A stretch of DNA of 64,000 bases. Source: Flavobacterium sp. GTDB lineage: Bacteria > Bacteroidota > Bacteroidia > Flavobacteriales > Flavobacteriaceae. This document shows, piece after piece, positions 14,012-63,201 of the stretch (position 1 is its first letter; every line of letters begins with the position of its first letter). The translations under genes were made by a program, and so were the position numbers. The stretch is taken from positions 13,829-77,828 of the forward strand of contig JAPLEX010000046.1 of assembly GCA_026390995.1 (NCBI GenBank), given 5' to 3'. The notes beneath the pieces are model-generated. The model did no database searches. It was given only the letters and a program-made list of their open reading frames with translations, and was not told where the DNA came from.

Positions 14012-15463
14012 ATGGGAACTGAAATAATTTTAAAAGGCGACAAAGTAATCGAACAAATTCCTTCGATAAAAGACAAGGCGCTCCGCATCAATCTCAACGA
14101 AAACATCTACGGAACATTTGCCGAGATTGGCGCAGGCCAAGAAACTGTTCGTCATTTTTTTAGATCAGGAGGCTCATCTGGTACGATAGCCAAAGCGATG
14201 TCGGCCTATGACAAAGACTTTAGTGATGCGATTTACGGCATAGAAGGTGATGGCCGCTACGTAACCGAAAGCCGGCTTAAAAAAATGCTTACCCACGAAG
14301 TTGATTTGATTGAGAGTCGCTTGAGCCGAGAAAAACACCCCAATAAAATGTTTTTCAGTTATGCCAATACGGTAGCGACAATTGATTTTGCCAAACAATT
14401 TAAAGGCCATGGTTGGGTAGGTATTAAATACCAAATTGACCCCGAAGAAGGCTATAACGAAATTATTTTACACATTCGCTTCAAGGAAACCGATGCAAAA
14501 CTGCAACAAGAAACCTTAGGGATACTAGGTGTAAACCTTATTTATGGCGCCTATTACAAATACAACGCTCCCAAAAAAATGTTGCGGTATTTGTATGATC
14601 ACCTCGACAAAGACCAACTGGAAATTGATACGATAAACTTCTCTGGTCCTCGTTTTGCTGAGGTGGACAATCGATTAATGAGTTTGCAATTGGTGAAAAA
14701 TGGCATGACTGATGCGGTGATGTTTAATCCCGAAGGCCAAAACATTTTGCCAGCGTCTATTTTATACAAAAAAAACATATTAACCCTGCGTGGAAGTTTT
14801 CGTCCGGTGACTTTGGTCAACATGGACATGTATAAAAATGCGCACAAAATGTTCTTGGAAGAAAACAAGGTTGATAAAGACAATACCTTGGTTATTGTTG
14901 AAATCACTTTGTCAAACTTGCGTTCTGAGGGCGAAATTGACGAAAGAGATTTTATTGACCGTGCCAATTTACTTTGCTCATTAGGGCAAACGGTAATGAT
15001 CTCGAATTTCCAAGAATACTACAAAGTGGTAGAATACTTTTCGAATTACACCAAAGCACGAATGGGATTGGCTATGGGAGTAAATAACTTGGTTGATATT
15101 TTTGACGAAAAATACTACCGTCATTTAAGTGGCGGAATATTAGAAGCCTTCGGAAAATTATTTTACCGCGATTTAAAAGTGTTTTTATACCCCATGCTAG
15201 GAGACGATGGCGTAACGATAATTAATTCCGAAAACCTAAAAGTTCATCCACGCATGAAAGAGCTGTATAAGTTCTTTAAATTCAACGGAAAAGTAGTGGA
15301 TATTCAAGATTACGACAATGACAACTTAAAAATTGTGTCCCGCGAGGTATTAAAAATGATCGGAAAAGGACAAAGTGGCTGGGAAAGCATGTTGCCTTCT
15401 GGTATAGCAGAACTAATTAAAGAAGATCGCTTATTTGGCGATCCAGTTAATTTTAAATCCTAA
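14012..15463 (+). CDS. Two-domain protein: CinA/PncC-like N-terminus plus NadD-like nucleotidyltransferase C-terminus, both degenerate
   Basis: FAEIGAGQ..GGSSGTIAKAMSAYD resembles CinA_C; RGSFRPVTLVN and IVSREVLKMI..MLPSGIAELIKEDRLFG resemble NadD; TAACTTTG box at 13981-13988. Confidence 0.6.
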   Translation: MGTEIILKGDKVIEQIPSIKDKALRINLNENIYGTFAEIGAGQETVRHFFRSGGSSGTIAKAMSAYDKDFSDAIYGIEGDGRYVTESRLKKMLTHEVDLIESRLSREKHPNKMFFSYANTVATIDFAKQFKGHGWVGIKYQIDPEEGYNEIILHIRFKETDAKLQQETLGILGVNLIYGAYYKYNAPKKMLRYLYDHLDKDQLEIDTINFSGPRFAEVDNRLMSLQLVKNGMTDAVMFNPEGQNILPASILYKKNILTLRGSFRPVTLVNMDMYKNAHKMFLEENKVDKDNTLVIVEITLSNLRSEGEIDERDFIDRANLLCSLGQTVMISNFQEYYKVVEYFSNYTKARMGLAMGVNNLVDIFDEKYYRHLSGGILEAFGKLFYRDLKVFLYPMLGDDGVTIINSENLKVHPRMKELYKFFKFNGKVVDIQDYDNDNLKIVSREVLKMIGKGQSGWESMLPSGIAELIKEDRLFGDPVNFKS

Positions 15464-15480
15464 TTAGTATCAACTGTATA

Positions 15481-15511
15481 AAAAAAGCCAAGTGAACTAC
15501 TTGGCTTTTTT
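15481..15511. terminator. Bidirectional terminator between convergent genes
   Basis: AAAAAAGCCAAGT-gaact-ACTTGGCTTTTTT. Confidence 0.85.
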
Positions 15512-15515
15512 ATTG

Positions 15516-15968
15516 TTATTTTAATATCTGACTGGCATGTGTTTTGGTTTTCACCTCGGTAATTACTTCGTCAATCACTCCTTGTTCATCAATTACAAAA
15601 GTAGTGCGGTGAATGCCATCGTATTCTTTACCCATGAATTTTTTAGGTCCCCAAACGCCAAAGGCTTCAATGACGGCTTTGTTTTCGTCGGCCAATAACG
15701 GAAAAGGAAATTCGAATTTGTTTCTAAAATTAGCTTGTGCTTTGGCATTGTCAGCGCTCACGCCCAATAAGGCATAATTATTGGCTTCAAATCGCGCAAA
15801 GTTGTCACGCAAATCGCAGGCTTCAGCAGTACATCCGGGCGTATTGGCTTTGGGATAAAAAAATACTACTAATTTTTTTCCTGCATAATTGGCCAAAGTA
15901 TGGCCCTTTCCGTCTTGATCTAAAGCTGAAAATTGTGGCGCCTGGTCTCCTTTTTTTAGTGTTGTCAT
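15516..15968 (-). CDS. bcp: Thioredoxin-dependent thiol peroxidase (BCP/PrxQ)
   Basis: FFYPKANTPGCTAEAC, RTTFVID. Confidence 0.93.
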   Translation of the reverse strand: MTTLKKGDQAPQFSALDQDGKGHTLANYAGKKLVVFFYPKANTPGCTAEACDLRDNFARFEANNYALLGVSADNAKAQANFRNKFEFPFPLLADENKAVIEAFGVWGPKKFMGKEYDGIHRTTFVIDEQGVIDEVITEVKTKTHASQILK

Positions 15969-16029
15969 AGTATATGATGTGGTTAAATTGTGCGTAAATG
16001 CTTAATTTTACGGAGATAAAAATACAAAA

Positions 16030-22524: not shown

Positions 22525-23625
22525 TTAATTGTGAAAGTAAATATTATCGATATAAACTGTACCCAAACCAGCTGGGTTTCCCGAAAAAATGAGTTGTGCA
22601 ATATGGTTTCTTGTTGTTAAACCTATAAAATCTGAAAGTGGTATGTCTAAGGAATTCCAACCATTTTGTGAGGGAACAAATGATAGTTCATGTTCTTTAT
22701 CATCATTTGGTGTTCCTTGATATACTCCATTTGCACCAAAATCAACTAGCTTTATACGAAAAGCGGTCATGTTTGGCGTCCAATAATCCACATGAAAATG
22801 GGTCATAGTGCTTATGTTAATTTGATTTGCAATTGTTTCTATACCAACAAAATTTAAAGATGAGTATTTTTTGGTAGCATTACCCGAAATATTCACATCA
22901 GTCAATGTTGCAAGCGACCACGGAGTTCTCCATGTATCTACTGGTACATTGGTATAGGCACCAGAAAACAAGGAAATTACATTTGACTGTGCAAATATAG
23001 GTGTGGGCGCTGCACTTATTGGAGAAGCACTGGTAATCGGAACATTTTCCGTATACTCTATTGAAACTGTTCCTCCATTTTTGGCGACCACTTTCACTAC
23101 GTAGTTACCCAAGGCCGTGTAATCATGTGAAATGGTTTCACCTTCGTTAAACAAAACGGGAACTTCATTGCTCACATCACCAAAATACACTTCAAAAAAC
23201 GTTTCCAAATCAGCCGTAGCAGTAACCGTTACGGTTAGGTCGTTTTTAACAATAGAGGCAACTAAATTAATTGGTGGCAAAAAGGAGATGCTTAATTCTT
23301 GAGTAACTTCTGTTCTTTTTCCATTTAGTGAAATACCGATAATTTTTACTATAAAATTGCCTTCTGAAGCATATGTATGCGTGATAGATTGCCCCGGATT
23401 TACTATCGCAGGTTCAGTAGTAGTATCGCCAAAAAACACTTCATATTGGGAAACGCCTTGGCCTCTTGGCGTAAAAGTAACTTTACCGGAATTGTCTTGG
23501 GCTATGGTTATTAGGGCCGAAATATTTTCGGGAGCGCCAATGGCTGTTAAATCGATGTCCTTATCGGTTGGCGTACAATTGGTAAGCAAACTTAGGAAAA
23601 CTAATGCGATGAATATTTTTTTCAT
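22525..23625 (-). CDS. Surface glycan-binding lipoprotein (two PKD-like repeats plus a C-terminal putative carbohydrate-binding domain)
   Basis: Lipobox LLTNC; EVFFGD/EVYFGD repeats; directly downstream of SusD; no catalytic motif recognised. Confidence 0.75.
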   Translation of the reverse strand: MKKIFIALVFLSLLTNCTPTDKDIDLTAIGAPENISALITIAQDNSGKVTFTPRGQGVSQYEVFFGDTTTEPAIVNPGQSITHTYASEGNFIVKIIGISLNGKRTEVTQELSISFLPPINLVASIVKNDLTVTVTATADLETFFEVYFGDVSNEVPVLFNEGETISHDYTALGNYVVKVVAKNGGTVSIEYTENVPITSASPISAAPTPIFAQSNVISLFSGAYTNVPVDTWRTPWSLATLTDVNISGNATKKYSSLNFVGIETIANQINISTMTHFHVDYWTPNMTAFRIKLVDFGANGVYQGTPNDDKEHELSFVPSQNGWNSLDIPLSDFIGLTTRNHIAQLIFSGNPAGLGTVYIDNIYFHN

Positions 23626-31324: not shown

Positions 31325-33208
31325 TTATTTTTTAATTAATCTAGAAGTAGCAGTTGCACCATCGGCAGTCACTTTTACTAAATAGATTCCTGCTTGTAAA
31401 TCGGCAATGTCAAGAACAACTGAATCAGCATTTGGGTTGATTTGTTTGATTTCTTGTCCAATTACAGAATAAACAGCAATCGAATCGATTACTTTTTTCG
31501 CTGTAATAGTAACCACATCTGAACTTGGATTTGGGAACATTTTTACATCGGCCAAGTTAAATGTAGCAGAGGCCAACGGGGTGTTACTGAAATAAACATT
31601 GTCAACAAATACGGTTCCTGCTCCAGCTGGATTTCCTGAGAAAATCAATTGAGCGATGTGAGCTCTAGAAGTTAAACCTGTAAAACTAGACAAGGGAATA
31701 TCGTAACCGTTCCACTGATTCAAAACGGGTGTATAGGATAACTCGAATTCTGTGTCATCATTTGGAGTTCCTTGGTACACACCATTTGCACCAAAATCAA
31801 CCAACTTCACTCGGAAAGTAGTCATGTTTGGCGTCCAAGCATCCACGTGAAAATACTGCATGTTGGTGGCATTGATTTGGCTATTTACCGTTTCAACTCC
31901 CACGAAATTTAAGGCAGAATATTTTTTAGTGTCATTGCCTGCAATTTGCAAGTCCGTTAAGTTGGCCGATGACCATACTGTTCTCCAAGTATCTACAGCA
32001 ACATTGGTGTAGGCATTACTAAACATAGAAATCACAGAAGCAGCCGGACGAGTTGGCGTTGGCGCAGCCGTCATTGGCTCATTTGGATTTGATGTTGGAA
32101 CATTGTGAAAATATACGTTATCAATATAAATAACTCCAGCCGCATCGGGCAATCCAGAGAAAATCAATTGTGCAATATGTCCTCTTGTCGTTAATCCACC
32201 AAAATCAGCCAATGGAATTTCATAGCTATTCCATCCGTTCAAAGTAGGTACATAGGTGATTTCGTGTTCTACGTCGTCGCCTCCAGCAAAAGCTCCATCA
32301 GCACCAAAATCAACCAATTTCACACGGAAAGCAGTCATGTTTGGTGTCCAAGCATCTAAGTGAAAAGTAGTCATTGCAGTAGCATTAATCGGGCTTGAAG
32401 TAGCCTCAACTCCTACAAAGCTCAAAGCAGAATATTTTTTGGTATCGTTTCCTGCAATTTGCAAATCTGTTAAGGTAGCGTTAGACCAATCGGTTCTCCA
32501 AGTATCTACTGTTACGTTGGTGTAGGCATTGCTAAACATCGAAACTACATTGGCAGCTGGACGAGTAGGTGTTGGTGCAGCAGTAAGAGGCTCCTGAGGA
32601 GTAACTGCATTTCCTGCTACTACTACATTACCTAATGCAGCTTCTTGCGCAGGGTTGGCATTCAAACCTTTGACAGTAAAACCATATTGCACAACTAAAC
32701 CAGCTGGGATTGCTGCGTCAGTAGTAATGCTAAAGGGTTGACCGGCCACTAAAGGGGCAGATACAAATACATCGGTAGAATAACCGGTTGCAGGATTTAA
32801 TCCTTTAATAAAGGCAACCGCTGTATAAGCAGAGTTTAAAGTGTTACTCGTTACGTTACCCGTAAAAGTTAGCACTTGACCTGCAAATGCGTTGTTTTCT
32901 ACAAAGGTATTTCCTTCAAATATTTTGTTTCCAATTGCACCATTTGACCAATACGGATCAGCGGCATTGTAGGTGTTGTAGTTTGGATACAAAGTAACCG
33001 TGTTGGCACCTGCATTGACTACCGATTTCATATCGGCCAATCCCCAACCACTTCCAAACTGAAACGTTGTTCCATCAGTTAAAAAGACATTGGCGTAGCC
33101 CGTCCACAAATCAGCTCCGTTAACAGAAACTGAATTTTGTGAAATTCCATTTTGAATTCCCGCAAAGGAGCAAAACAAAATAGCAACTAATTGTAAAGTT
33201 TTTTTCAT
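31325..33208 (-). CDS. T9SS-secreted protein: unknown N-domain, two tandem putative carbohydrate-binding domains, type A CTD
   Basis: Signal peptide; two ~165-aa repeats (AAPTPTRPAA..VISMFSNAY..DNVYF); CTD VKMFPNPSSD..YSVIGQ..GIYLVKV..RLIKK. Confidence 0.85.
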   Translation of the reverse strand: MKKTLQLVAILFCSFAGIQNGISQNSVSVNGADLWTGYANVFLTDGTTFQFGSGWGLADMKSVVNAGANTVTLYPNYNTYNAADPYWSNGAIGNKIFEGNTFVENNAFAGQVLTFTGNVTSNTLNSAYTAVAFIKGLNPATGYSTDVFVSAPLVAGQPFSITTDAAIPAGLVVQYGFTVKGLNANPAQEAALGNVVVAGNAVTPQEPLTAAPTPTRPAANVVSMFSNAYTNVTVDTWRTDWSNATLTDLQIAGNDTKKYSALSFVGVEATSSPINATAMTTFHLDAWTPNMTAFRVKLVDFGADGAFAGGDDVEHEITYVPTLNGWNSYEIPLADFGGLTTRGHIAQLIFSGLPDAAGVIYIDNVYFHNVPTSNPNEPMTAAPTPTRPAASVISMFSNAYTNVAVDTWRTVWSSANLTDLQIAGNDTKKYSALNFVGVETVNSQINATNMQYFHVDAWTPNMTTFRVKLVDFGANGVYQGTPNDDTEFELSYTPVLNQWNGYDIPLSSFTGLTSRAHIAQLIFSGNPAGAGTVFVDNVYFSNTPLASATFNLADVKMFPNPSSDVVTITAKKVIDSIAVYSVIGQEIKQINPNADSVVLDIADLQAGIYLVKVTADGATATSRLIKK

Positions 33209-44459: not shown

Positions 44460-45581
44460 ATGATTACCCTTCGCGAAGCCATTACCAAAAAAGAGCTGAA
44501 GCAATTTATCTTGTTTTCGTTTAATTTATACAAAGACAACCCCAATTGGATTCCGCCCTTAATTCAAGATGAATTAATCACCTTTGACAAAACCCAAAAC
44601 CCGGTTTTTGAAAACGCAGAAGCCTATTTTTACTGCGCCTACAAAGACGGGAAAATGGTGGGCAAAGTGGCTGCTATTGTCAATTGGAGTGAAGTCAAAG
44701 ACCTAGGTAAAAAGAAAGTCCGCTTCGGTTGGTTTGATGTGATTGACGACATCGAAGTGACCAAAGCCTTGCTCGAAAAAGTATACGAATTGGGTCGCAA
44801 ACACAACTTAGAAGAAGTAGAAGGACCCATGGGATTTTCGAATATGGACAAAGTTGGGTTGCTGACTGAAGGTTTTGAACACATCGGAACCATGATTACC
44901 TGGTACAATTACCCCTACTATGTAACGCATTTTGAACAACTGGGTTACGTGAAAGAAAAACAATTTTTAGAGAGTGTGTTTCCGTTTGCCAATGTGAAAC
45001 TCGAAGTATTTGAGCGCACCTCCCACTTTATTTGCAAACGCTACCAACTCCGGGTCGTGAATTGCAAATCGACCAAAGAGGTTCTGAAATACGCCGACCA
45101 AATGTTTGATCTGTTTAACGAATGTTACGCCAAATTGTCTTCGTTTGTTCCGATTTCAGCTGCCCAAAAAGAATTTTTCAAGAAAAAATACATGGGCATG
45201 ATCAACCCCGAATTCATCAATTTTGTATTTGACGCCAACGATAAAATGATCGCCTTCAGCATCGTGATGCCTTCCTTGACCGAAGCCCTAAAAAAGGCAA
45301 ACGGCCGTTTATTTCCGTTTGGCTGGTACCATTTGCTTCGGGCCAAAACCAAAACCAATGCCATCTTGTTCTACCTCATTGGCATTCATCCCGATTACCA
45401 AAATAAAGGCGTTACGGCTCCGATGTTTATCGAATACTTCAATGCTTTTAAACGATTTGGAATTGAAACTTGCATTCGCACACCCGAACTTGACGAAAAC
45501 AACGCCATCCACAATTTATGGAAGACCTTTGATCCGGTGATTCATAAGAGGAGATGTACGTATATGAAGAAGTTGGAGTAG
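44460..45581 (+). CDS. GNAT-fold N-acyltransferase, bacterial ceramide synthase (bCerS)-like
   Basis: LYKDNPNWIPP, VGKVAAIVN, RFGWFDVIDD, EGPMGFSNMD, TWYNYPYY, IGIHPDYQNKG, ELDEN. Confidence 0.7.
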   Translation: MITLREAITKKELKQFILFSFNLYKDNPNWIPPLIQDELITFDKTQNPVFENAEAYFYCAYKDGKMVGKVAAIVNWSEVKDLGKKKVRFGWFDVIDDIEVTKALLEKVYELGRKHNLEEVEGPMGFSNMDKVGLLTEGFEHIGTMITWYNYPYYVTHFEQLGYVKEKQFLESVFPFANVKLEVFERTSHFICKRYQLRVVNCKSTKEVLKYADQMFDLFNECYAKLSSFVPISAAQKEFFKKKYMGMINPEFINFVFDANDKMIAFSIVMPSLTEALKKANGRLFPFGWYHLLRAKTKTNAILFYLIGIHPDYQNKGVTAPMFIEYFNAFKRFGIETCIRTPELDENNAIHNLWKTFDPVIHKRRCTYMKKLE

Positions 45582-45716
45582 GTTGTCCGTTATCGGTTGT
45601 CGGTTATCGGTTTTCTGTTGTCGGTTAAACATAAAGTAATTAAGTATAATTAGAACAAATGAGTTCTCAGTATACTTTTTCAACTTTATGACTTTTGACT
45701 TTCGACTTTATGACTC
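45582..45716. repeat. Intergenic element: inward-facing heptamer arrays around an imperfect 36-bp palindrome
   Basis: Six GTTRTCG-like heptamers from the 45581 stop; AAGTATAATTAGAAC-aaatga-GTTCTCAGTATACTT (45642-45677); TTT(A)TGAC/TTTCGAC units up to the 45717 stop. Confidence 0.85.
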
Positions 45717-52149: not shown

Positions 52150-53490
52150 ATGGCTGCACTACACGAATTTAATGCCGTTTCCCCGATCGACGGAAGATAC
52201 AGAAGCAAGACCGAATCACTTTCGGCCTATTTTTCAGAAGAAGCCTTAATTCGCTACCGCGTATTAGTAGAAATTGAATATTTTATTGCTTTATGCGAAT
52301 TGCCTTTGCCGCAATTAAGTAAAGTAAATCCAAGTGTGTTTTCGGCTTTGCGCAGCTTGTATGAAAATTTTTCAACGGCCGATGCACAAGCCATCAAAGA
52401 CATTGAGCAAACCACCAACCACGATGTAAAAGCCGTGGAATACTTTATCAAACAAGCCTTTGACCGTTTGGACTTGGCTCCTTACAAAGAATTCATCCAC
52501 TTCGGATTGACTTCGCAAGACATCAACAACACGGCCATTCCGCTATCAACCAAGGTTCACAACGTTTACTTGAAATCCTTAATTGCAGTGATAGCCAAAC
52601 TCAAAGAGATGAGCGTAGCTTGGGCCGAGATTCCGATGTTGGCCCGTACGCACGGACAACCCGCCTCGCCTACTCGTTTGGGTACGGAAATTGGGGTGTT
52701 TGTAGAACGCTTGGAAGAGCAACTGCGTTTGTTGTTTTCGATTCCTTTTGCCGCCAAATTTGGGGGAGCAACCGGAAATTACAACGCGCACCACGTGTCC
52801 TACCCGCAGGTAGATTGGCGCAAGTTTGGCACTGATTTCGTGAGTGATACCTTGGGCTTGCACCACTCCTTTCCCACCACACAAATAGAACATTACGATC
52901 ATTTTGCCGGCTTTTTTGATGCGTTAAAAAGAATCAATACCATCTTGATTGATTTGGACCGCGACATCTGGACTTATGTCTCGATGGATTACTTTAAGCA
53001 AAAAATAAAAGCGGGCGAAATTGGTTCCTCGGCCATGCCACACAAAGTAAACCCGATAGATTTTGAAAATTCGGAAGGCAATTTAGGAATGGCCAATGCC
53101 TTGTTTGAGCATTTATCGGCCAAATTACCGATCTCCCGTTTGCAACGCGATTTGACTGACAGCACGGTGTTGCGCAACATAGGCGTTCCATTTGGGCACA
53201 CGATTATTGCATTAGAAGCCACCTTAAAAGGTTTGAATAAATTGGTGTTAAACGAAGACAAATTGGCCAGCGAATTGGAAAATAACTGGGCTGTAGTGGC
53301 CGAAGCCATTCAAACGATTTTGCGCCGCGAAGGCTATCCAAATCCGTATGAAGCCTTGAAAGATCTAACCCGCACTCACGGTGTGATTAATCAAGAAGCC
53401 ATTCAGGAATTCATCCAAACATTACAAGTTTCTAGTGAAATTAAAGACGAATTACTGGCGATTAGCCCGAGTAATTATGTGGGGATTTAG
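52150..53490 (+). CDS. purB: Adenylosuccinate lyase
   Basis: SPIDGRY, TNHDVKAVEY, HFGLTSQD, RTHGQPA, SSAMPHKVNPIDFENSEGN. Confidence 0.96.
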   Translation: MAALHEFNAVSPIDGRYRSKTESLSAYFSEEALIRYRVLVEIEYFIALCELPLPQLSKVNPSVFSALRSLYENFSTADAQAIKDIEQTTNHDVKAVEYFIKQAFDRLDLAPYKEFIHFGLTSQDINNTAIPLSTKVHNVYLKSLIAVIAKLKEMSVAWAEIPMLARTHGQPASPTRLGTEIGVFVERLEEQLRLLFSIPFAAKFGGATGNYNAHHVSYPQVDWRKFGTDFVSDTLGLHHSFPTTQIEHYDHFAGFFDALKRINTILIDLDRDIWTYVSMDYFKQKIKAGEIGSSAMPHKVNPIDFENSEGNLGMANALFEHLSAKLPISRLQRDLTDSTVLRNIGVPFGHTIIALEATLKGLNKLVLNEDKLASELENNWAVVAEAIQTILRREGYPNPYEALKDLTRTHGVINQEAIQEFIQTLQVSSEIKDELLAISPSNYVGI

Positions 53491-53494
53491 AAAG

Positions 53495-53670
53495 TTGTCG
53501 GTTTAGATAATTGAAAGATTGAAAAATTTAAAGATTTAAAGATTTAAAGATTTCGTCTAGAAGTCATAGTTTTGTCCTGAAGATTTGGAATTTCTTATCG
53601 ACTGTTCTCAGTATATTCAGAAAACTTCCCACTTCCATCTTCCATCTTCCAACTCCCCGCTTCCCACTTA
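53495..53670 (-). repeat. Intergenic composite element between convergent purB and guaB
   Basis: Minus strand from the guaB stop: TGGGAAG-type heptamers, GAATATACTGAGAAC-agtcga-TAAGAAATTCCAA, CTTCAGGAC, then an AATCTTTA octamer array. Confidence 0.85.
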
Positions 53671-55140
53671 CCTAGAATAATTCGGTGCTTCCTTCGTAAT
53701 CGTCACATTGTGCGGATGACTTTCGGTAATTCCACTGGCAGTGATGCGCACAAAACGACCGGTTTCTTGCAGTGTAGGAATATCTTTGGCACCGCAATAA
53801 CCCATTCCGGCTCGGAGGCCGCCAATGAATTGTTGCATGCTTTCGTTTAATTCGCCTTTGTACGGCACACGCCCTACGATGCCTTCGGGTACTAATTTTT
53901 TTACATCGTCTTCTACGTCTTGAAAATAGCGGTCTTTCGAGCCTTCTTGCATGGCTTCAACCGAACCCATTCCGCGATAGGATTTAAATTTACGTCCTTC
54001 AAAAATGATGGTTTCGCCTGGAGATTCTTTGGTACCGGCCAATAAAGAGCCCAACATCACGCAATCGGCGCCGGCAGCAATGGCTTTAGGAATGTCACCG
54101 GTGTAGCGAATTCCTCCATCGGCAATTACCGGAACACCACTGCCTTTTAGGGCGGCAGCTACTTCTAACACGGCTGAAAATTGCGGAAAACCAACCCCAG
54201 CTACAATACGCGTAGTACAAATAGAACCCGGACCAATCCCCACTTTTACGCCATCGGCACCGTGCTGAGCCAAATACAAGGCGGCTTCGGGTGTGGCAAT
54301 ATTTCCAACAATTACATCGATACTCGGGAATTGTGCTTTAACTAATTTTAATACGTTCACTACGCCTTCGGTATGCCCGTGAGCAGTGTCAATAATAACC
54401 GCATCCACTCCCGCTTGCACTAAAGCAGCGGCACGATCAATCGCATCGGCCGTTACGCCAATAGCAGCAGCAACGCGTAAACGACCAAAGGTATCTTTGT
54501 TGGCAATGGGTTTTTGGGTCAATTTGGTGATATCTCGAAACGTAATCAAACCGACTAGTTTGTAATTTTGGTCGACTACGGGTAACTTTTCGATTTTATT
54601 TTCTTGTAAAATGCCTTCGGCTTCTTGCAGGGTAGTACCAACGGCAGCCGTTACTAAATTTTTGGAAGTCATGACCTCAGTAATGGGTCGACTGTTTTCT
54701 TTTTCAAAACGCATGTCGCGATTGGTGGTAATTCCTTTCAGAATGCCATGTTCGTCAACTACAGGAATTCCGCCTATGCCGTGCTCTTTCATCAATGATT
54801 TGGCATCACCCACGGTAGCCGAGAGCGGCAAGGTTACAGGATCGATGATCATGCCGCTTTCGGCACGCTTTACTTTGCGCACTTTGGCCGCTTGTTGCTC
54901 GATGCTCATGTTTTTATGCAACACGCCAATTCCTCCCTCTTGTGCTATAGCAATCGCCATTGCACTTTCAGTCACGGTATCCATCGCCGCTGAAACGATG
55001 GGCACGTTTAAGGAAATATTTTTAGAAAATCTAGATTGGATGCGCACTTCGCGGGGAAGCACATTAGAATAATTGGGAACTAAAAGGACGTCATCATAGG
55101 TTAATCCTTCGCCGATAATTTTCGTGTGGTGTGCGTTCAT
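53668..55140 (-). CDS. guaB: IMP dehydrogenase
   Basis: [12 protein letters not shown] pair, [23 protein letters not shown]. Confidence 0.97.
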
Positions 55141-55227
55141 TGCAATTTGAAGTTGTAGTTAAATTGCGTGCAAATATAAAGTAATTTATTTAGAAAAACG
55201 GCGCGTTTTCGGACAGAAAATAGAATT

Positions 55228-56091
55228 TTAATGGTAGAATTTAAAAATCTTGGTCGCCTCGTTATAAGCGCTTTCAAAACTCAAGGGACTGGTGCCCGTT
55301 GCTTCTTTTTGGGTGGTAAAATAAGACAACAATTTTTCGGTGGGCATATTTCCGGTTAGTTCATCTTTGGCCATCGGACAACCGCCAAAACCTTGAACCG
55401 CGCCATCAAATCGGCGGCAACCGGCCCTGTAGGCGGCGTCTACTTTTTCAAACCATTTATCGGGTGTGGTATGCAAGTGAGCACCAAATTCTATGGTGGG
55501 ATATTGTGGAATTAAATTCGAAAATAAATACGAAATCACCTCGGGCGTAGAACTGCCAATGGTATCCGATAGCGACAATATGGCCACGCCCATTTGGGCC
55601 AATCGTTCGGTCCATTCAGCCACAATTTCGACGTTCCAAGGATCGCCATACGGATTGCCAAACCCCATGGACAAATAGGCTACGACTTCTTTGTTGTGTG
55701 CATGGGCAATGTCGAGGATTTCTTGCAAACTCAACAAGGATTCGGCGATGGTTTTATGGGTATTACGCATTTGGAAATTCTCAGAAATCGAAAACGGAAA
55801 TCCCAAATAATTGATTTCTGGAAACTGTGCTGCGGCTTGTGCGCCTTGGGTATTGGCAATGATGGCCAACAATTTACTTTGGGTTTGTGACAAATCGAGT
55901 TGCGCCAAAACGGCTGCCGTATCTTGCATTTGCGGAATGGCCTTGGCCGATACAAAACTCCCGAAATCGATGGTGTCAAAACCTACCCGCAACAGCGACT
56001 GCAGGTAATCCACCTTGCGCTGGGTAGGAATAAATTCCTTGATGCCTTGCATGGCGTCTCGCGGACATTCGATGATTTTGATGGGATTCAC
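55228..56091 (-). CDS. Hydroxymethylglutaryl-CoA lyase family protein
   Basis: ECPRDAMQG, GSFVSAKAIPQM, LSDTIG, HLH, GFGGCP, GNMPTE. Confidence 0.88.
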   Translation of the reverse strand: MNPIKIIECPRDAMQGIKEFIPTQRKVDYLQSLLRVGFDTIDFGSFVSAKAIPQMQDTAAVLAQLDLSQTQSKLLAIIANTQGAQAAAQFPEINYLGFPFSISENFQMRNTHKTIAESLLSLQEILDIAHAHNKEVVAYLSMGFGNPYGDPWNVEIVAEWTERLAQMGVAILSLSDTIGSSTPEVISYLFSNLIPQYPTIEFGAHLHTTPDKWFEKVDAAYRAGCRRFDGAVQGFGGCPMAKDELTGNMPTEKLLSYFTTQKEATGTSPLSFESAYNEATKIFKFYH

Positions 56092-56096
56092 AGCTA

Positions 56097-57125
56097 CTAT
56101 TTGATGGCTAAAGATAGCGCGATTTTTTGATTAATGGCTTTCACCAAGGCCGGACCTTCGTAAATAAAACCGGTATACAACTGCACCATACTGGCTCCAG
56201 CTTCAAGCTTTTCGAGGGCATCATCGGCGCTGTGAATACCGCCTACACCAATGATTGGAAATGCACGGTTGCTTTTTTCAGCTAAAAACCGAATCACTTC
56301 GGTGGAACGTTGGGTTAAGGGTTTACCGGATAATCCGCCCATTTCAATTTTGTTTTCCGATTGCAAACCTTCTCTGGATAGCGTAGTATTGGTGGCAATC
56401 ACGCCCGCAATTTGGGTGATTTTTACAATGTCGATGATGTCAAGCAATTGCTCGTCGGTGAGATCGGGGGCTATTTTGAGTAAGATGGGTTTGGTCTTGA
56501 CTTGGGCCAAATTTTTATTTTGCAAAGTTTGCAACAATTGCGTGAGTGGTTCCTTGTCTTGCAGGGCACGCAAGTTGGGTGTATTGGGCGAACTCACATT
56601 CACCACAAAATAATCGACCACCTCATACAAGGCATCAAAACAAATTTCGTAATCGGAAGTGGCGGTTTCGTTGGGGGTATCTTTGTTTTTGCCGATGTTT
56701 CCTCCAATCAATACGCCTTTGTTTTGTTTCAAGCGCAACACAGCCGAATCCACTCCCCCATTGTTAAAGCCCATGCGGTTGATGATGGCGCTGTCGGCTT
56801 TGAGTCTAAACAAACGTTTTTTAGGATTACCGGCCTGAGGCTTGGGCGTAAGCGTACCAATCTCGATGAAGCCAAATCCAAAATTGGCCAATTCCTGGTA
56901 CAACTTGGCATCTTTGTCAAAGCCAGCCGCTAATCCTACCGGATTTTTAAATTTTAACCCAAATACTTCGCGTTCCAATCGAGGGTCATTAACCGCATAC
57001 ATTTGATTACACAACCAACCAAAGCCCGGAATTTTATGCAACAAACGAATGCACGCAAAGGTAAAATAATGCACTTGTTCGGGATCAAACCAAAACAAGA
57101 TCGGACGAAGAAGGAGTTTGTACAT
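56097..57125 (-). CDS. pyrD: Quinone-dependent dihydroorotate dehydrogenase (class 2)
   Basis: [35 protein letters not shown]; promoter box at 57144-57151. Confidence 0.96.
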
Positions 57126-57192
57126 GAGGAATTATTTGCTGCACAAAAGTAAATTATAATTGTTAATTAATACTGAATAATTGTAGATTAAG

Positions 57193-57307
57193 AGCGGGAA
57201 GTGGGAAGTTGGGAGTGGGAAGAAAACCTAAAACCTAAAACCTACAACCTACAACCCACAACCTAAAACCTACCACCTAAAACCCACAACCTAAAACCCA
57301 CAACCTT
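57193..57307. repeat. Two abutting heptamer tandem arrays between divergent genes
   Basis: Four GTGGGAA-like units, then twelve (A/C)AACC(T/C)A-like units. Confidence 0.9.
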
Positions 57308-57372
57308 AACAATCTCTTCTGATGAAATATATCTTTATTACTTACTTTTGAAAAAAAAATAATCCTTTTAAT

Positions 57373-57939
57373 ATGAAAAAAATAATTTTTGCAGGAGTCA
57401 TATCCCTGATTTTGCTAGGCGGATTTGTATATTCAACTCGAGAAGTTAATAATCAAACCCCTAAAAAGCCAATTCCAAAGCTGCTTTCAGCTGCTGAAAT
57501 GAAGGCTAAACTAAAAAAATGGGAAGCGACTCCTGATGGCATTCAGTACAAAAAATGGCAAGCCTCTCCAGCAGGCAAAAAAGTGCATGCCAGTATTGCT
57601 AAAATAAGCCAATCCATTAAGGATAAAAGTAATATGGAAGCAGTTGTTACCTCTCTTTCTCTTCCGCCAGGATCAAGATTAGGTTTCGGAGTAATGGTTA
57701 GGATTAATGATGCTGATTATATTCTTACTTTAGGATTGGATAAGCAAGGCAAGAATGCATTGGATTTTAAAAATGAATATGAGCAATTGCATAGCCTAAA
57801 AGTGAACGACAAAATAAGTATAAAAAGCCATAGTGTTTCGCAAGCACCCAAGTATTCCTATCCAATAATTGCAGGAGACTATGTAGAACGAGATCATAAA
57901 CAAATATATAAACGCGTACTTCGAAAAGGCGGTTGCTAA
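57373..57939 (+). CDS. Hypothetical exported or membrane-anchored protein
   Basis: 188-aa ORF, N-terminal hydrophobic segment, TACTTTTG box at 57343-57350. Confidence 0.7.
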   Translation: MKKIIFAGVISLILLGGFVYSTREVNNQTPKKPIPKLLSAAEMKAKLKKWEATPDGIQYKKWQASPAGKKVHASIAKISQSIKDKSNMEAVVTSLSLPPGSRLGFGVMVRINDADYILTLGLDKQGKNALDFKNEYEQLHSLKVNDKISIKSHSVSQAPKYSYPIIAGDYVERDHKQIYKRVLRKGGC

Positions 57940-58058
57940 CTAAAGTATAAAATACATTGATAGAAATTAATCGATTGACTATCAAAAACTTTATACGCTT
58001 AAAAGAGAAGAAATTATTAGACTACTAATCTTACCCTTTTTATATAAAAACCAAAGAA

Positions 58059-58331
58059 ATGAAAAAATTTATGCTTGATATCCAATTAGACGGATTGGAC
58101 AATGAAACAAGAATGAAACTACTCCCCAGAGAACAAGAGCTTGTAAAAGAGATGGAACAAAACGGCACTATTGTAGACACCTTTATTAAACTTGATATGT
58201 CCGGAATTTTTATTGTGATGATGGCAACAGATTCAGAAGATGTTCATACAAAACTTTCCACTTTGCCTTATTATCCTTTTATGAAAATTAAAACAATTCC
58301 TGTTCGAGTGGTTAACAGCATCAATCAATAA
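58059..58331 (+). CDS. Muconolactone delta-isomerase-like small protein
   Basis: 90 aa; REQELV..EQNG..ATDSEDVHTKLSTLPYYPFMKIKTIPV resembles the MIase C-terminal pattern. Confidence 0.6.
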   Translation: MKKFMLDIQLDGLDNETRMKLLPREQELVKEMEQNGTIVDTFIKLDMSGIFIVMMATDSEDVHTKLSTLPYYPFMKIKTIPVRVVNSINQ

Positions 58332-58420
58332 TATGCTAAATTAACTCTAAAAAATTATCGATGTTGTGGCCGAAAACAAGCCGAACCTCCCGCCGGTGAT
58401 GTCATTTCAAAAAATAAAAA

Positions 58421-59209
58421 ATGAATAAACAATCTTCATTGTATTTCATCCTTGTTTTGCTCATGTGCTTACAAAACACATTTGCGCAAAATAATCGATT
58501 ACATACCGCCAATACGATTGGATGGTACAACTATTTTGGAACCTTCAAAGTCTCAGAAAAATTTGGCATACACACCGAGTACCAATGGCGGAGAGATAAC
58601 CTAATTACAACTTGGCAACAAAGTCTTTTACGGGTTGGTATAAATTACAATGTAAATGCGAGAGTACAATGTAGAGTTGGCTACGCTTGGATAGAAACAT
58701 TTCCTTATGGAGAATTCCCAATTAATAGTTTGGGTAGAGATTTTACAGAACATAGAATTTTCGAAATGATTCAACTTGCTCATAAAGAAGGAATTGTTGA
58801 TTTGTCTCATCGGTTCATGCTCGAACAACGCTTTGTAGGTCGGTATTCTTCTGCTACTCAACTTACTGAAGATGAATTTCCACTGCTCCAACGCATGCGG
58901 TATATGTTTCGGTTACAAATTCCCCTGAAAGGAAACGAAATAAAAGACAAAACACCCTATGTTGCTTTGTATGATGAGATTTTTATTGGCTTTGGAGAAA
59001 ATGTAAATGCCAATATTTTTGACCAAAATAGAATAGGTGTTCTGTTGGGCTATCGCTTCAACAAAAACCTGCGACTAGAAGCAGGCTATTTAAACCAAAC
59101 TCTACAATTTGGCAGACAAATAAATGGCCAAAATGTTTTTCAAACTAATTCGGGTTTGCTCCTAAATGCACACTTTAATTTTGATTTGAGAAAACAAGCA
59201 AGTAACTAA
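58421..59209 (+). CDS. DUF2490 outer-membrane beta-barrel protein
   Basis: GWYNYFG, EYQWRR, LLRVGINY, LEQRF, RMRY, DEIFI, DQNRI..LGY. Confidence 0.85.
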   Translation: MNKQSSLYFILVLLMCLQNTFAQNNRLHTANTIGWYNYFGTFKVSEKFGIHTEYQWRRDNLITTWQQSLLRVGINYNVNARVQCRVGYAWIETFPYGEFPINSLGRDFTEHRIFEMIQLAHKEGIVDLSHRFMLEQRFVGRYSSATQLTEDEFPLLQRMRYMFRLQIPLKGNEIKDKTPYVALYDEIFIGFGENVNANIFDQNRIGVLLGYRFNKNLRLEAGYLNQTLQFGRQINGQNVFQTNSGLLLNAHFNFDLRKQASN

Positions 59210-59230
59210 AACTATCGCTTCATCTGAATT

Positions 59231-59512
59231 GAAGTGGGAATGGAAGCTAGAAGTTGGAAGTTGGGAGTTGGAAGTTTTCTAAGTATACTAAGAACTGTTT
59301 ATAAGAAATTCCAATATTGAATCCCAACACTTCGGGATCAAAATTTCGGGCCCAAACGGATAACCGAAAACTGATTTAGCCACGAATGAACGAATTTTGA
59401 AATTCCAATACCTAAATTCCAAATTCCAAAACTTCGGGACCTATTTATGTCTTCTCGACAAAATCTTTAAATCATTCAATTATTCAATCTTTAAATCTTC
59501 TAGACCTAAAAC
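59231..59512 (+). repeat. Intergenic composite element(s) between convergent genes
   Basis: AAGTTGG heptamers, AAGTATACTAAGAAC-tgttta-TAAGAAATTCCAA, ATCCCAACACTTCGGGAT hairpin, second TTGAAATTCCAA arm, CTTCGGGAC, AATCWTTM octamers. Confidence 0.85.
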
Positions 59513-59878
59513 CTAAATCTGATCTGCAATTCGTTGACACAACATCCCTACAATTCGTTTGTTTAAATCGCTTTTGTGGTCGAGGTAAAACGGGAGTTCT
59601 TCTTCGGTAAGGAGTGCCAAGACCAACCCTACTAAAACATTTCTAAGGGCGATGTCTTTTTGCATGCGCAGTTTTACAAAATTTTCGAGCGCTGCACTTT
59701 TTGCAGGAATTTCTGCAGCCTGAATTTGTGCCTTAAACAAGGCGATGATTAGATTGTTTTGAAACTTGAGTATCGGTCGTAGGCATTCGTTTTGAAATTG
59801 TTCGAGCGGCAATGAACTGCGTGTTGCATCGATTATTATTTCGCTTCGAAGAGTGAGAAGTTGCGCCGATCGTGTCAT
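59513..59878 (-). CDS. Conserved hypothetical protein (FQNECLRPILKFQ family)
   Basis: 121 aa from ATG 59878; the upstream extension in the track is translated repeat. Confidence 0.7.
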   Translation of the reverse strand: MTRSAQLLTLRSEIIIDATRSSLPLEQFQNECLRPILKFQNNLIIALFKAQIQAAEIPAKSAALENFVKLRMQKDIALRNVLVGLVLALLTEEELPFYLDHKSDLNKRIVGMLCQRIADQI

Positions 59879-59909
59879 AGTTTTTGATTTTGGTAAATAT
59901 AGTGAATAA

Positions 59910-60013
59910 GTGGGAAGTGGGGAGTGGGAAGTGGGGAGTGGGAAGTTGACTGTAAACCAACAACCGAGAACCGAGAACTGAAAACTGACAACCGACAACT
60001 GACAACTGACAAC
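59910..60013. repeat. Two abutting heptamer arrays between divergent genes
   Basis: Five TGGG(A/G)AG units, then GAGAACC/GACAACT units. Confidence 0.9.
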
Positions 60014-60084
60014 AAATTCGTTTATAAATGCAAATGCTACCACCTAAAATCATAGCTTTGCGCGGTTTCTAACTACAAGAAAAC

Positions 60085-60738
60085 ATGTTAAAAAGAACAA
60101 CTATTTCGGTGTTAATGGCTGTGTACAATACCGATTTCGTCTATATAAAAAGAGCGATAGATTCTGTATTGATGCAAGATTTTCAGGATTTCGAGCTCAT
60201 CATCATTGACGATGGCAGCAAAGAAAACAACCGAGAATCGTTGATGCAGTATGTAGAACAACACGAAGACAAAATCATTTACATTCGCCACTGCAACCAA
60301 GGTCAATCGGAATCGATCAACCGGGGCGTGAAGAACAGCAGTGGAGAATATATCACGATACTTGACAGCGACGACGAATACAAACCGCATCATTTGAGTG
60401 CTTGTCTCGATGAAATCGAAAATTTGGATTTAATTTGTTCGACTACCGAAACCATTGTAAATACCGACGCCGACTATTATGTACCCGACAAAGATGATGT
60501 GACGCAACTCATCCACTTGGATGAAACCGTTTTGTTTGGCACGCTGTTTGGCCGTAAAAAAGTGTTTAAACTCCTCAAATTTAAAACAGGCTTTGCCGCT
60601 GATGCCGATTTTTTTGAAAAAGCCACTTCCCTATTTCAAGTAAAAAAAGTAAATCTCCGCACCTACATTTACCACCGAACCATGCCCAACAGCATTTGTG
60701 CTACACTGATCAAAGCCAATTTGAGTAATGCACTTTGA
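60085..60738 (+). CDS. Glycosyltransferase family 2
   Basis: SVLMAVYN, IIIDDGS, N.G, YITILDSDD; TAGCTTTG box at 60053-60060. Confidence 0.88.
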   Translation: MLKRTTISVLMAVYNTDFVYIKRAIDSVLMQDFQDFELIIIDDGSKENNRESLMQYVEQHEDKIIYIRHCNQGQSESINRGVKNSSGEYITILDSDDEYKPHHLSACLDEIENLDLICSTTETIVNTDADYYVPDKDDVTQLIHLDETVLFGTLFGRKKVFKLLKFKTGFAADADFFEKATSLFQVKKVNLRTYIYHRTMPNSICATLIKANLSNAL

Positions 60739-61463
60739 TCTTCCGCAGATTCATCCCAGCAAAAACCTAGTATTGGCCAGTCACATTACAGGAATCTTTG
60801 ATGTGAACCGAAATACCACCTTGGCACACGACAACTATGAACTTGTGCGCGAATGGTCGGAATCATTGGCAAACGCACAAGTGCAAGGCATTCTTTTTCA
60901 CAATGGATTCTCGGAAGCAAGCTGCAAAAAATATACAACTGACTTTGTTTCATTTGTACGCATTGAATACAATCCAAGCTATAACCCAAACGTGTTTCGG
61001 TATTTTGTGTACCGCGATTTTTTAGAAAAAAATATATCTCAGCTAGATACTGTTTTTTGCACCGACGTTTCAGATGTGGTGTTGGTGAAAAACCCATTTA
61101 CGGATTCCCGGAGATGAACCCAAATTGTTGCACAACGACTGGATGCAGGCGCACGGCACGCATTTGCGGGATAAAATTGCAGACTACGCACATTTTGAAG
61201 CCGCATTTGCCAAGGATACCCTGTTGAATTGCGGGATTATTGGAGCAAACGCTCCTCTTTTTTACCAATTGATTCAGCAATTATGTGCGTTTCACGAGTT
61301 GGGCAATCGCGACAATAAAACAGTGTTCACCGGCGATATGGGCGTGTTTAATTATGTGGCCCGAACGCAATACAATACCCAACTGATTCACGGCGCACCT
61401 GTAAATACGGTATTTAAAAACTATGAAACCGAACGCAGCGATTGTTGGTTTAGGCATAAATGA
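60728..61463 (+). pseudogene. Putative GT-A-fold protein split by a frameshift near 61110
   Basis: Frame 1 ends FCTDVSDVVLVKNPFTDS; frame 2 opens GDEPKLLHNDWM..LLNCGIIG..GDMGVFNY..WFRHK. Confidence 0.7.
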
Positions 61464-62110
61464 GTGAAGTGGGAAGTTGGAAGTTGGAAGTTGGAAGTTT
61501 GCAGAGTATACTAAGAACAGTTGATTTGAAATTCCAATACCGAATCCCGAAGCTTCGGGACCAAATTCCAAAAGGGTACTTCAAGAGGAAAATCATTCAA
61601 TTTTTCAATCATTCAATCTACTTAATTAAAAAACCAAAACAGATGAGAGATAAGAGATTAGAGACAGATTAAAAATTCGTACCATTATTTTCGCAACACG
61701 GATTTATAGAAATTAGAGAACTAATTAAAAAAAAATGTGCATTTCTTCAATCCGTGTTCAAATAAAAACACTTTGCGTCCCGAGACTTCGGGTTTGCGTC
61801 TTTGCGAGAGAAATTGTATTATAAGTCATTAAGAACAGGTACAGGGTCAAATTCCAATTGTTAAAATTCCAAAATCCAAACGTTGACTCGCTGAGGAAAA
61901 TCTTTCAATCATTCAATTTTTCAATCTTTCAATCTACTTAATTAAAAAACCAAAACAGATTAGAGATGATTCTAATAAATAATTACCAATTATATTTTAA
62001 CCACGAATACACAGATTTATTTTTATAAATTGAAAACGAATTCGATCATCGTTGATGATCATTCGAATAAAATAAATGGCATCAAAAATATTCGTGAATT
62101 CGTGGCAGAA
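61464..62110. repeat. About 650 bp of nested repeat elements
   Basis: Heptamers plus arm element, perfect palindrome TCCCGAAGCTTCGGGA (61545-61560), 33-bp direct repeat (61612 and 61928), inverted repeats at 61695/61749 and 62001/62098. Confidence 0.85.
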
Positions 62111-63065: not shown

Positions 63066-63096
63066 AGATTTGGAAAAAGCAAACTTGATTTAAAAA

Positions 63097-63201
63097 GATG
63101 GAAGTGGGGAGTTGGAAGTTGGAAGTTGGAAATTGGGATTTAACCGACAACTGATAACTCACAACCCATAACTGACTACTGACTACTGACAACTGACAAC
63201 C
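63097..63201. repeat. Two abutting heptamer arrays between convergent genes
   Basis: GGAAGTT-type units, then GACAACT/GACTACT units. Confidence 0.9.

Follow-up and report, generated by a model that had tools for sequence, protein, structure and literature searches.

Three copies of a modular intergenic element lie in a 64-kb window of DNA from a Flavobacterium sp. (assembly GCA_026390995.1, contig JAPLEX010000046.1, positions 13,829 to 77,828 of the forward strand; "the window" is this whole analysed stretch of 64,000 nucleotides). The organism has a freshwater habitat: words of the region are found in lake and river metagenomes, with 78-96% of them in runs X1-X3. The source assembly (G000) has 2.16 Mb in 98 contigs and a G+C content of 40.8%, and is 94% complete and about 90% coding. 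It is compared here with a sister species (G018) and, at the spacer between the convergent genes purB and guaB, with a third genome (L069). The copies follow the stop codons of guaB, of an open reading frame (ORF) at 58421-59209 and of another ORF at 61125-61463. In each, a GGAAGTK heptamer array beginning 2-19 nt past the stop codon precedes a 13-mer (GTATACTAAGAAC, the first arm), six nucleotides (N6) and a second arm (TAAGAAATTCCAA), with a CTTC(G/A)GGA motif and then an octamer array downstream. A search for the composite GTATACTAAGAAC-N6-TAAGAAATTCCAA with up to three mismatches gives three matches in the window, at 53585-53616 (minus strand), 59283-59314 (plus) and 61506-61537 (plus), where 100 shuffles lead one to expect 0.00. 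The original prediction, made from this DNA alone, had proposed three copies at these positions with one module order from stop codon to octamer array, and both claims are borne out. The copies are laid out as follows:

53495-53669, minus strand: copy 1, filling the whole convergent purB/guaB spacer
53585-53669, minus strand: copy 1, GGAAGTK array (53623-53669), 13-mer ATATACTGAGAAC (53604-53616), AGTCGA (53598-53603) and TAAGAAATTCCAA (53585-53597)
53510 to about 53584, minus strand: copy 1 continued, CTTCAGGA motif (about 53570-53584) and octamer array of 5.5 units of ATTTAAAG (53510-53553), with 1.5 AACCGAC units adjoining the purB stop codon
59228-59512, plus strand: copy 2, with GGAAGTT array (59241-59276), 13-mer (59283-59295), TGTTTA and TAAGAAATTCCAA (59302-59314)
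about 59321-59410, plus strand: copy 2 continued, CCCAACACTTCGGG hairpin (about 59321-59339), GCCACGAATGAACGAAT module and a lone second arm (about 59396-59410)
59400-59499, plus strand: 3' part of copy 2, AAATTCC array (59400-59430), CTTCGGGAC and octamer array AAATCTTT (59461-59499)
61464-61651, plus strand: copy 3, with GAAGTTG array (61466-61499), 13-mer (61506-61518), AGTTGA and TTTGAAATTCCAA (61525-61537)
about 61546-61618, plus strand: copy 3 continued, CCCGAAGCTTCGGG hairpin (about 61546-61561) and octamer array AATCATTC (61591-61618)

The three copies are paralogues of one non-coding, hairpin-prone mosaic repeat that belongs to a genome-wide vocabulary of modules. Together with two copies from the sister species they have about 95 alignment columns in common, with a mean identity of 76%. 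Copy 2 has a positional homologue in the sister species (C4:168854-168990), and the orthologue of copy 3 there (C4:173730-173817) likewise carries AGTTGA. The last 61 nt of copy 3 recur at 61907-61967 with 97% identity. The full arm-N6-arm combination occurs only five times in the source genome. In folding models the loop of a weak stem contains the 13-mer, and the end of the array (TTGGAAGTTTTCT) would pair with AAGAAATTCCAA to form this stem.

This vocabulary extends far beyond the window. The 13-mer GTATACTAAGAAC occurs 51 times in the source genome with at most one mismatch, 50 of these being intergenic, and each of its positions is invariant in 88-97% of occurrences. Exact copies among 31 genomes are confined to the source genome (32) and the sister species (14); heptamer arrays of other sequence are found across the genus Flavobacterium. 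Arrays, which were called with Tandem Repeats Finder (TRF) at periods of 7 or 8 and merged, number 342. The commonest period is 7 (306 rows, plus multiples of 14 and 21 nt) and 277 of the 342 arrays are intergenic, in a genome with 10-15% intergenic DNA, so that they belong to the class of heptamer tandem arrays with several, overwhelmingly intergenic families. Families include GGAAGTK, GTCGGTT, AGCTGTY, TTTTGAT, AATAATK, AAATTCC, AAGTCGWA and AAATCTTT. Modules other than the 13-mer have 16-42 copies each, among them the unique pieces GCCACGAATGCACGAAT (36 copies) and TCCCGAAGCTTCGGGA (42) and a terminator hairpin, CCCCTCTCGAGAGGGG (18). These parts are joined in many orders, as expected of the modular family originally proposed, and some spacers of 400-550 nt consist of nothing else. 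Multi-module units are duplicated in tandem as A-B-A-B at C57:29245, as C-D-C-D at C15:7933 and as three units of 91 nt at C46:33217. The 91-nt unit (C46:33217-33490) comprises a 13-mer, a canonical terminator hairpin with a T8 run and a GGAAGTT array. At several sites (C51:11958, C28:56142, C15:7150, C73:9178) the 13-mer is followed by a module, GTCATTGCGAGGAGGAACGACGAAGCAATC, that seems to resemble a palindromic repeat yielding spurious small ORFs of the "...CFVPRNDG" type in many Bacteroidota and cyanobacteria. Contig ends carry arrays in 6.6% of cases and random windows in 4.4%, which is not informative.

Arrays occupy 161 of 1480 spacers, with shares of 16% between convergent genes, 12% between divergent and 10% between tandem genes, and many adjoin start codons. 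They are therefore not specific to gene 3' ends, contrary to the targeting that had been proposed from the window.

Spacers that contain arrays change rapidly. Among spacers of at least 60 nt in the source genome whose flanks both align in the sister species (a calibration that used 1.02 Mb of the latter), 18 of 50 with arrays (36%) fail to align, compared with 7 of 209 (3%) without them (Fisher p=1.4e-9); each spacer length class shows this difference. Replacement between the sister species is thus shown to be about tenfold more frequent in array-bearing spacers than in others. The purB/guaB spacer is an example. Copy 1 is found there in the source genome and in L069, and wholly different modules occur in the sister species. 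In L069, copy 1 is followed by an array, about 250 nt and a second array ([array-X-M-array]), where the source genome has 1.5 units; direct arrays of one family bound this indel. A fourth allele comes from a strain about 93% identical, whose metatranscriptome contig (run X21) covers both gene ends: it keeps the guaB-side array and has 103 other bases in place of 53484-53620, the stretch with the 13-mer core and octamers. At this orthologous site, which the original prediction had named for comparison, content is replaced among close relatives. Metagenome contigs from other lakes differ inside the arrays by +7, -35 and -16 nt, through changes in unit number that come in steps of 7 or 8 nt. This strain variation was read from assembled metagenome and metatranscriptome contigs, which break at repeats and cannot show rare forms.

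Gene-scale differences have a less consistent relation to the arrays. A 2.0-kb segment absent from the sister species (57223-59240, plus strand) is bounded by direct GGAAGT arrays at 57196-57222 and 59241-59276, and holds three ordinary accessory genes, whose products are a hypothetical protein, an MIase/DUF3303-like protein and a DUF2490 outer-membrane protein. The two boundaries of a 357-nt indel (C57:45538-45896) match directly at 14 of 14 positions. At the position of 59908-60013 the sister species has other modules plus 2.8 kb with three genes (a leucine-rich repeat (LRR) protein with a type IX secretion system (T9SS) tail, a glyoxalase and a DUF1801 protein). The genes beside the elements are in general ordinary (DUF2490, MIase-like, glyoxalase, DUF1801, LRR/T9SS-tail and lipoprotein genes). 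When colinear indels of at least 300 nt between the two species were counted over about half the genome, 8 of 28 had arrays at the boundary of the long allele, three of them being cassettes with a PF05635 gene (described below), and 3 of 28 had a 13-mer. Leaving out cassettes, 4 of 24 were array-bounded, about what two random spacers give. Arrays as a general boundary of accessory-gene indels are accordingly rejected, and the individual cases remain. No target-site duplication is visible at the indel junctions that were read.

Most 13-mer positions are conserved. For at least 10 of the 14 sites in the sister species with an exact 13-mer, the source genome has one at the projected orthologous place, so insertion is not frequent and recent mobility of the 13-mer is not demonstrated. 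Together with the near-chance count of array-bounded indels, this goes against the insertion system that had been proposed. The genome-wide calibration indicates that the elements are old, mostly vertically inherited and locally hypervariable, and are not a general vehicle of accessory-gene flux.

The orientation of arrays depends on their place in the transcript. Genome-wide, arrays within 40 nt after stop codons, read on the mRNA strand, have more G than C in 61 cases and fewer in 29 (p=0.001), against a background after stop codons in which C exceeds G (953 vs 680). Arrays just before start codons have more C than G (53 vs 28, p=0.007), as leaders generally do. Single heptamer families show no evident bias in how they are oriented to the genes; the G/C polarity by position is evident. 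Arrays also lie edge to edge with genes (61 are no more than 10 nt from a stop codon), which together with the polarity suggests a constraint that acts through the transcript. Leaders in Bacteroidota are without Shine-Dalgarno sequences. The polarity probably reflects what mRNAs tolerate, namely unstructured A/C-rich leaders and stem-forming trailers after stop codons.

Slippage and ectopic recombination among arrays, under this transcript-level constraint, are the most likely mechanism behind these patterns. New combinations would arise by replication slippage together with ectopic recombination or template switching between arrays, with use of host replication and recombination functions and no dedicated recombinase. 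The arm-N6-arm portion would be a conserved core of about 45 nt rather than an insertion site. Whole-unit gain and loss among strains, tandem duplication of multi-module units and direct arrays of one family at both ends of some indels are all observed. We assign this explanation as a whole, a mosaic repeat family that originates by slippage and recombination, a probability of roughly 0.55.

The same polarity can be read as function. If the elements were selected cis-acting RNA structures, their spread would reflect function rather than mobility; we regard this as rather unlikely, and are equally doubtful of its specific form, in which 3' stabilisers or terminators would follow stop codons and G-rich/C-rich pairing between cistrons would lead to RNase III processing or translational coupling. 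Apart from the polarity rule and the placement of arrays at stop codons (61 within 10 nt on either side) and start codons, this idea gains from the position after guaB. Three heptamer families occupy it in different Flavobacterium lineages: GGAAGTK in the source genome and L069, AGCTNNN in the sister species, and (AGTGYTC)n followed by a canonical terminator in other Flavobacterium species (loci L072, L075 and L077). Some modules are themselves canonical terminators adjoining the 13-mer (e.g., CCCCTCTCGAGAGGGG with a T-run, or AGCAGTAGGCG..GCTGCTG with T8), module sequence is as conserved as coding sequence, and the arms of the PF05635 cassettes form strong duplexes (-20 to -47 kcal/mol). The purB/guaB spacer also appears to be transcribed, since the contig of run X21 spans it, but contigs of this kind may contain carried-over DNA. 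Against such a role, none of the three window copies has a predicted canonical terminator, fold z-scores of elements are modest (-0.6 to -3.3), and the consensus hairpin of five sequences is weak (-7.1 kcal/mol), with a single compensatory pair. Rfam has no match at gathering score in the whole window, and 36% replacement between sister species is high for essential regulators. A G.U-wobble asymmetry, in which GTTGTCA pairs with AGCTGAC only in sense RNA, was considered and rejected: the cassette arm duplexes are strong on either strand, and the sense duplex is the more stable in only 3 of 8 arm pairs, so sense transcripts have no general advantage. Sigma-70 promoter-like matches in the three copies are fewer than shuffles lead one to expect. 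One, TTGGAA-17-TATACT, was set aside as a chance consensus match; the sigma-70 consensus does not apply to Bacteroidota promoters.

Arrays of the same families enclose genes for small four-helix-bundle proteins (PF05635; TIGR02436), which we take to be the Avd/23S-IVS-protein family. The source genome has six intact genes and one interrupted by an assembly gap, and the sister species has five. The intact source cassettes are at:

C38:26725-27039
C24:55186-55506
C21:40724-41041
C89:14202-14510
C34:7976-8300
C73:2814-3098

Each cassette fills an operon spacer exactly, reaching from the stop codon of the gene before it to the start codon of the gene after it. In all 11 cassettes of the two genomes an array on one side faces its reverse complement on the other, and the heptamer differs from one source copy to the next. 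The statement in the original prediction that heptamer arrays flank such genes thus holds for 6 of 6 intact genes in the source genome and 5 of 5 in the sister species. In gene orientation G exceeds C in the upstream arm of 11 of 11 cassettes, and in none of the downstream arms, which were detected in 10 of 11. Of eight distinct sites, three are common to both genomes, three belong to the source genome only and two to the sister species only. At two of the five polymorphic sites the other genome has a solo array of the heptamer found in one arm; the remaining three have a hairpin without a gene and of a different heptamer, a solo array of another kind, and no array. The same sites can therefore be occupied either by a cassette or by a gene-less array. 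The PF05635 gene is the only consistent cargo enclosed by inverted arrays, and it turns over fast: three of the 28 indels of at least 300 nt are such cassettes, though the family numbers only 6-7 genes. A 345-aa lipoprotein-like gene at C69:14103-15262 (locus L204 300-1500), on the opposite strand between inverted AGGTTTT/AAACCTR arrays, is absent from the sister species, as is a 2.1-kb segment with two lipoprotein genes between inverted 13-mers at C8:13598-15708. The literature on these genes and on repeats yielded no description of their link to heptamer arrays.

Gene-less elements could on this evidence be non-autonomous relatives of the cassettes, whose proteins would recognise the hairpins of arrays and help them to be maintained, copied or exchanged, in a relation analogous to that of REP sequences and their RAYT proteins (introduced below) but without a known catalytic domain. 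We consider this unlikely, although the inverted arms of all cassettes, the 5 of 8 sites occupied in only one genome and the number of cassette indels speak for it, as does the link between gene and array family: four of the most abundant families have a cognate cassette in the source genome (GTCGGTT, GGAAGTK, TTTTGAT and AAATTTCC) and AAGTCGWA has one in the sister species. On the other side, AATAATT, AAATCTTT, AGCTGTY and ACCTAMM are abundant without a cognate gene in this 94%-complete assembly, no nuclease or recombinase activity is known for the protein family, and the 13-mer is absent inside the cassettes. The three window elements contain no ORF and no PF05635 match, and are therefore relatives of cassettes by array family only. 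The proposal that they are empty cassette sites thus stands in part: gene-less arrays or hairpins are the other allele at 4 of 5 polymorphic cassette sites, but the window elements share no more than the array family.

The arm-N6-arm combination was also proposed to belong to an insertion system acting in trans, and in that case a site-specific recombinase would use it as core site and insert cassettes at gene 3' ends. We find this very improbable. All eight copies seen keep the 6-nt spacing, a true inverted 13-6-13 site exists at 45644-45675 (the only such arrangement in the source genome), and the two-gene segment at C8:13598-15708 lies between inverted 13-mers. A synteny breakpoint also falls inside a 13-mer cluster (C15:7933-8107 and 10658): the blocks that flank the cluster are about 13 kb apart in the sister species (C19:1744 and 15057-15974), with one of them inverted, which places a rearrangement breakpoint there. 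However, the 6 nt described as variable are as conserved as the arms. They read AGTCGA, TGTTTA and AGTTGA in the window, AGTTGA twice in the sister species and AGTCGA in L069, that is, AGTYGA in 4 of 5 aligned copies. The first arm agrees with the reverse complement of the second at 3 of 13 positions by eye, so the arms are not inverted repeats, and with a conserved N6 the combination is not a recombinase-type core. Adjacent 13-mers are mostly direct (23 vs 5 inverted, with modules of 37-126 nt between them), most 13-mer sites are orthologous between the species, elements also adjoin start codons and occupy divergent spacers, and neither arrays nor 13-mers are over-represented at gene-scale indels. 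Tyrosine recombinases (PF00589) occur elsewhere in the genome, five in G000 and four in G018, but they are of ordinary kinds and none lies on the window's contig or is known to be linked or specific to the elements; the best pair between the genomes is a shared Xer-like protein of 320 aa.

Searches for other enzymes were negative. Neither the Y1 transposase domain (PF01797) of REP-associated tyrosine transposases (RAYTs) nor a reverse transcriptase has a match in either genome, where control genomes matched. Multi-copy repeats of insertion sequence (IS) size are absent from the source genome, an absence through which DDE transposases were checked only indirectly. The original statement that the window lacks a transposase or recombinase therefore extends to its whole contig for tyrosine recombinases, Y1 transposases and reverse transcriptases, and to DDE enzymes by this indirect check; the enzyme supposed to act in trans found no counterpart among Y1 transposases, reverse transcriptases or multi-copy IS. 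Several known element classes fit no better. Arms of dif-, pdif- or attC-like core sites of tyrosine recombinases would be inverted, and here the sole inverted pair is that at 45644-45675. Repetitive extragenic palindromic (REP) sequences and bacterial interspersed mosaic elements (BIMEs) with a RAYT would need the PF01797 protein that both genomes lack. Miniature inverted-repeat transposable elements (MITEs) are argued against by the mostly direct 13-mers, by the lack of a visible target duplication and by the lack of multi-copy IS. An integron cassette layout does not match elements dispersed over 161 spacers in all orientations with cargo on either strand, in an analysis that included no intI-specific search. 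Clustered regularly interspaced short palindromic repeats (CRISPR) do not match either: the repeat has 13 nt and the 37-126-nt intervals are repeated arrays and hairpins found at many loci.

Several points weigh against slippage and recombination within a mosaic repeat family. The mechanism itself is not directly observed, contigs cannot show rare excision or circular products, and the indels, not being polarised by outgroups, may be insertions or deletions. Unique parts of modules are as conserved as neighbouring genes; one orthologous module is 92% identical, and its flanking genes 90% and 85%. Neither pure slippage nor recombination explains the invariance of the 13-mer, which suggests that it is bound or used by some factor. 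Adjacent arrays are inverted copies of each other (at least 12 of 14 positions) in 11 of 115 pairs, weakly above the 7.0 +/- 2.6 of shuffles, and the five ordinary tyrosine recombinases could yet be players. The notion that arrays always come as inverted pairs was rejected on the same count, as such pairing is weak at best outside cassettes.

Further features of this vocabulary lie in the window, and include the other arm combinations that had been noted: an inverted 13-mer pair, the lone second arm in copy 2 and a degenerate copy.

61760-62110, plus strand: degenerate second copy and further modules, in the same 723-nt spacer as copy 3
61760-62110, parts: TTTGCGTCCCGAGACTTCGGG hairpin; degenerate arm pair at about 61823-61860 with 12-nt spacing; octamer array at 61899-61935
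62001-62106: palindromic module of GCCACGAAT type, present too in the purB/guaB spacer of the sister species
45581-45715: convergent spacer with GGTTGTC array (45581-45626), inverted 13-mers 6 nt apart at 45644-45656 (plus) and 45663-45675 (minus), and ACTTTATG array (45683-45715)
57196-57306, plus strand: array-array junction, GGGAAGT x3.9 and then directly AAAACCT/ACAACCT x12
59908-60013, plus strand: array-array junction, AAGTGGG x5.6 and then AACCGAC x8.4
63095-63200, plus strand: array-array junction, AAGTTGG x6 and then AACTGAC x8.4

The two arrays at 63095-63200 are complementary at 5 of 7 positions and give a periodic imperfect hairpin. Other repeats of the window (D2/D3; 31325-33208 and 22727-23032) are internal domain repeats of about 165 aa and are unrelated to the intergenic elements. 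They occur in a 627-aa putative T9SS substrate with a C-terminal sorting domain, and another copy is in the neighbouring gene. Elsewhere in the genome, an acetyltransferase-like gene is duplicated (C29:3750-4342 and 5633-6226, 92% DNA identity); the repeat modules that come after the two copies differ, and a tRNA-like sequence is nearby.

Direct heptamer repeats of the TAACTGA type are known beside start and stop codons in Beggiatoaceae, Cyanobacteria and five Bacteroidetes (MacGregor 2015, PMC4679880). In these organisms several heptamer families share a spacer, close relatives can have shorter, array-free spacers, and neither function nor mechanism is known (PMC4679880). The present arrays are similar to these short tandemly repeated repetitive (STRR) or TAACTGA-type heptamers, being intergenic tandem arrays of 7 nt with several families per spacer, placed directly upstream of start codons ("forward") or after stop codons, and TAACTGA/AACTGAC units occur in this genome too. 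Unlike them, arrays are joined here by 13-mer and hairpin modules into recurring mosaics, for which a polarity rule and a roughly tenfold turnover excess have been measured, and inverted arrays enclose PF05635 genes, a link unmentioned in that paper. The best-understood mosaic intergenic repeats are REP/REPIN sequences with their RAYTs (Bertels & Rainey 2011, PMC3116915). Like BIME, REP and REPIN sequences, the present elements are extragenic, palindrome-rich mosaics of variable motif order and number that cluster in spacers, have tens to hundreds of copies and are lineage-specific. They differ in having no Y1/RAYT gene, in arrays of 7-8 nt compared with REP palindromes of 20-40 nt, and in adjacent 13-mers that are mostly direct rather than inverted doublets.

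Three further systems offer partial parallels. The BOX elements of Streptococcus pneumoniae consist of boxA, a variable number of 45-nt boxB units and boxC. They too have a tandem module that varies in copy number between conserved modules at the ends, are intergenic and structure-prone and have no transposase, but their sequences, unit size (45 nt vs 7-8 nt) and phylum differ, and the present family has many alternative modules without a fixed A-B-C order. In the intervening sequences (IVS) of 23S rRNA genes in Leptospira and Coxiella, a PF05635 ("S23p") gene lies in the loop of a long stem. The PF05635 gene here is likewise in the loop of a long inverted-repeat stem, and the window elements share array families with its arms; in contrast to the IVS, the cassettes lie between protein-coding genes rather than in rRNA, and the window elements have no ORF and a weak stem. 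Small dispersed repeats (SDR) of Nostoc, reportedly described by Elhai et al. in 2008, are said to have conserved words of 21-27 nt. The resemblance is in very short words (13 nt here) inside heptamer arrays and other repeats, intergenic and lineage-specific, with no known enzyme; the sequences are unrelated, and most 13-mer sites here are positionally conserved between sister species. The family is one of mosaic intergenic repeats, and its new aspects are the mosaics of 13-mers and hairpins, the polarity, the turnover excess and the PF05635 link.

Intergenic heptamer arrays have been noted for decades in cyanobacteria, and later in sulfur bacteria and a few Bacteroidetes, but no function or mechanism has been assigned to them. 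This small genome, free of IS and reverse transcriptases, is a clean case in which arrays occur in a tenth of spacers, follow a polarity rule, make their spacers evolve about tenfold faster than others and have the PF05635 gene as their only regular cargo. A broader idea, which we judge quite improbable, is that arrays, 13-mer linkers and PF05635 genes form one self-maintaining system that has no canonical recombinase and also sets intercistronic RNA structure. A small pentameric protein would recognise array hairpins, which would be copied or exchanged between spacers, and these hairpins would carry the PF05635 gene and occasionally others, such as the lipoprotein genes at C69:14103-15262 and C8:13598-15708. 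If true, this broader idea would add a new class to the mobile or regulatory elements of bacteria, and would account for the unexplained heptamer repeats of cyanobacteria, sulfur bacteria and Bacteroidota. The results also carry a caution, in that the attractive reading as a cassette system fails the genome-wide count of indel boundaries. Testable predictions follow for slippage and recombination of arrays, for RNA processing and for recognition of arrays by the protein, and Flavobacterium has genetically tractable members.

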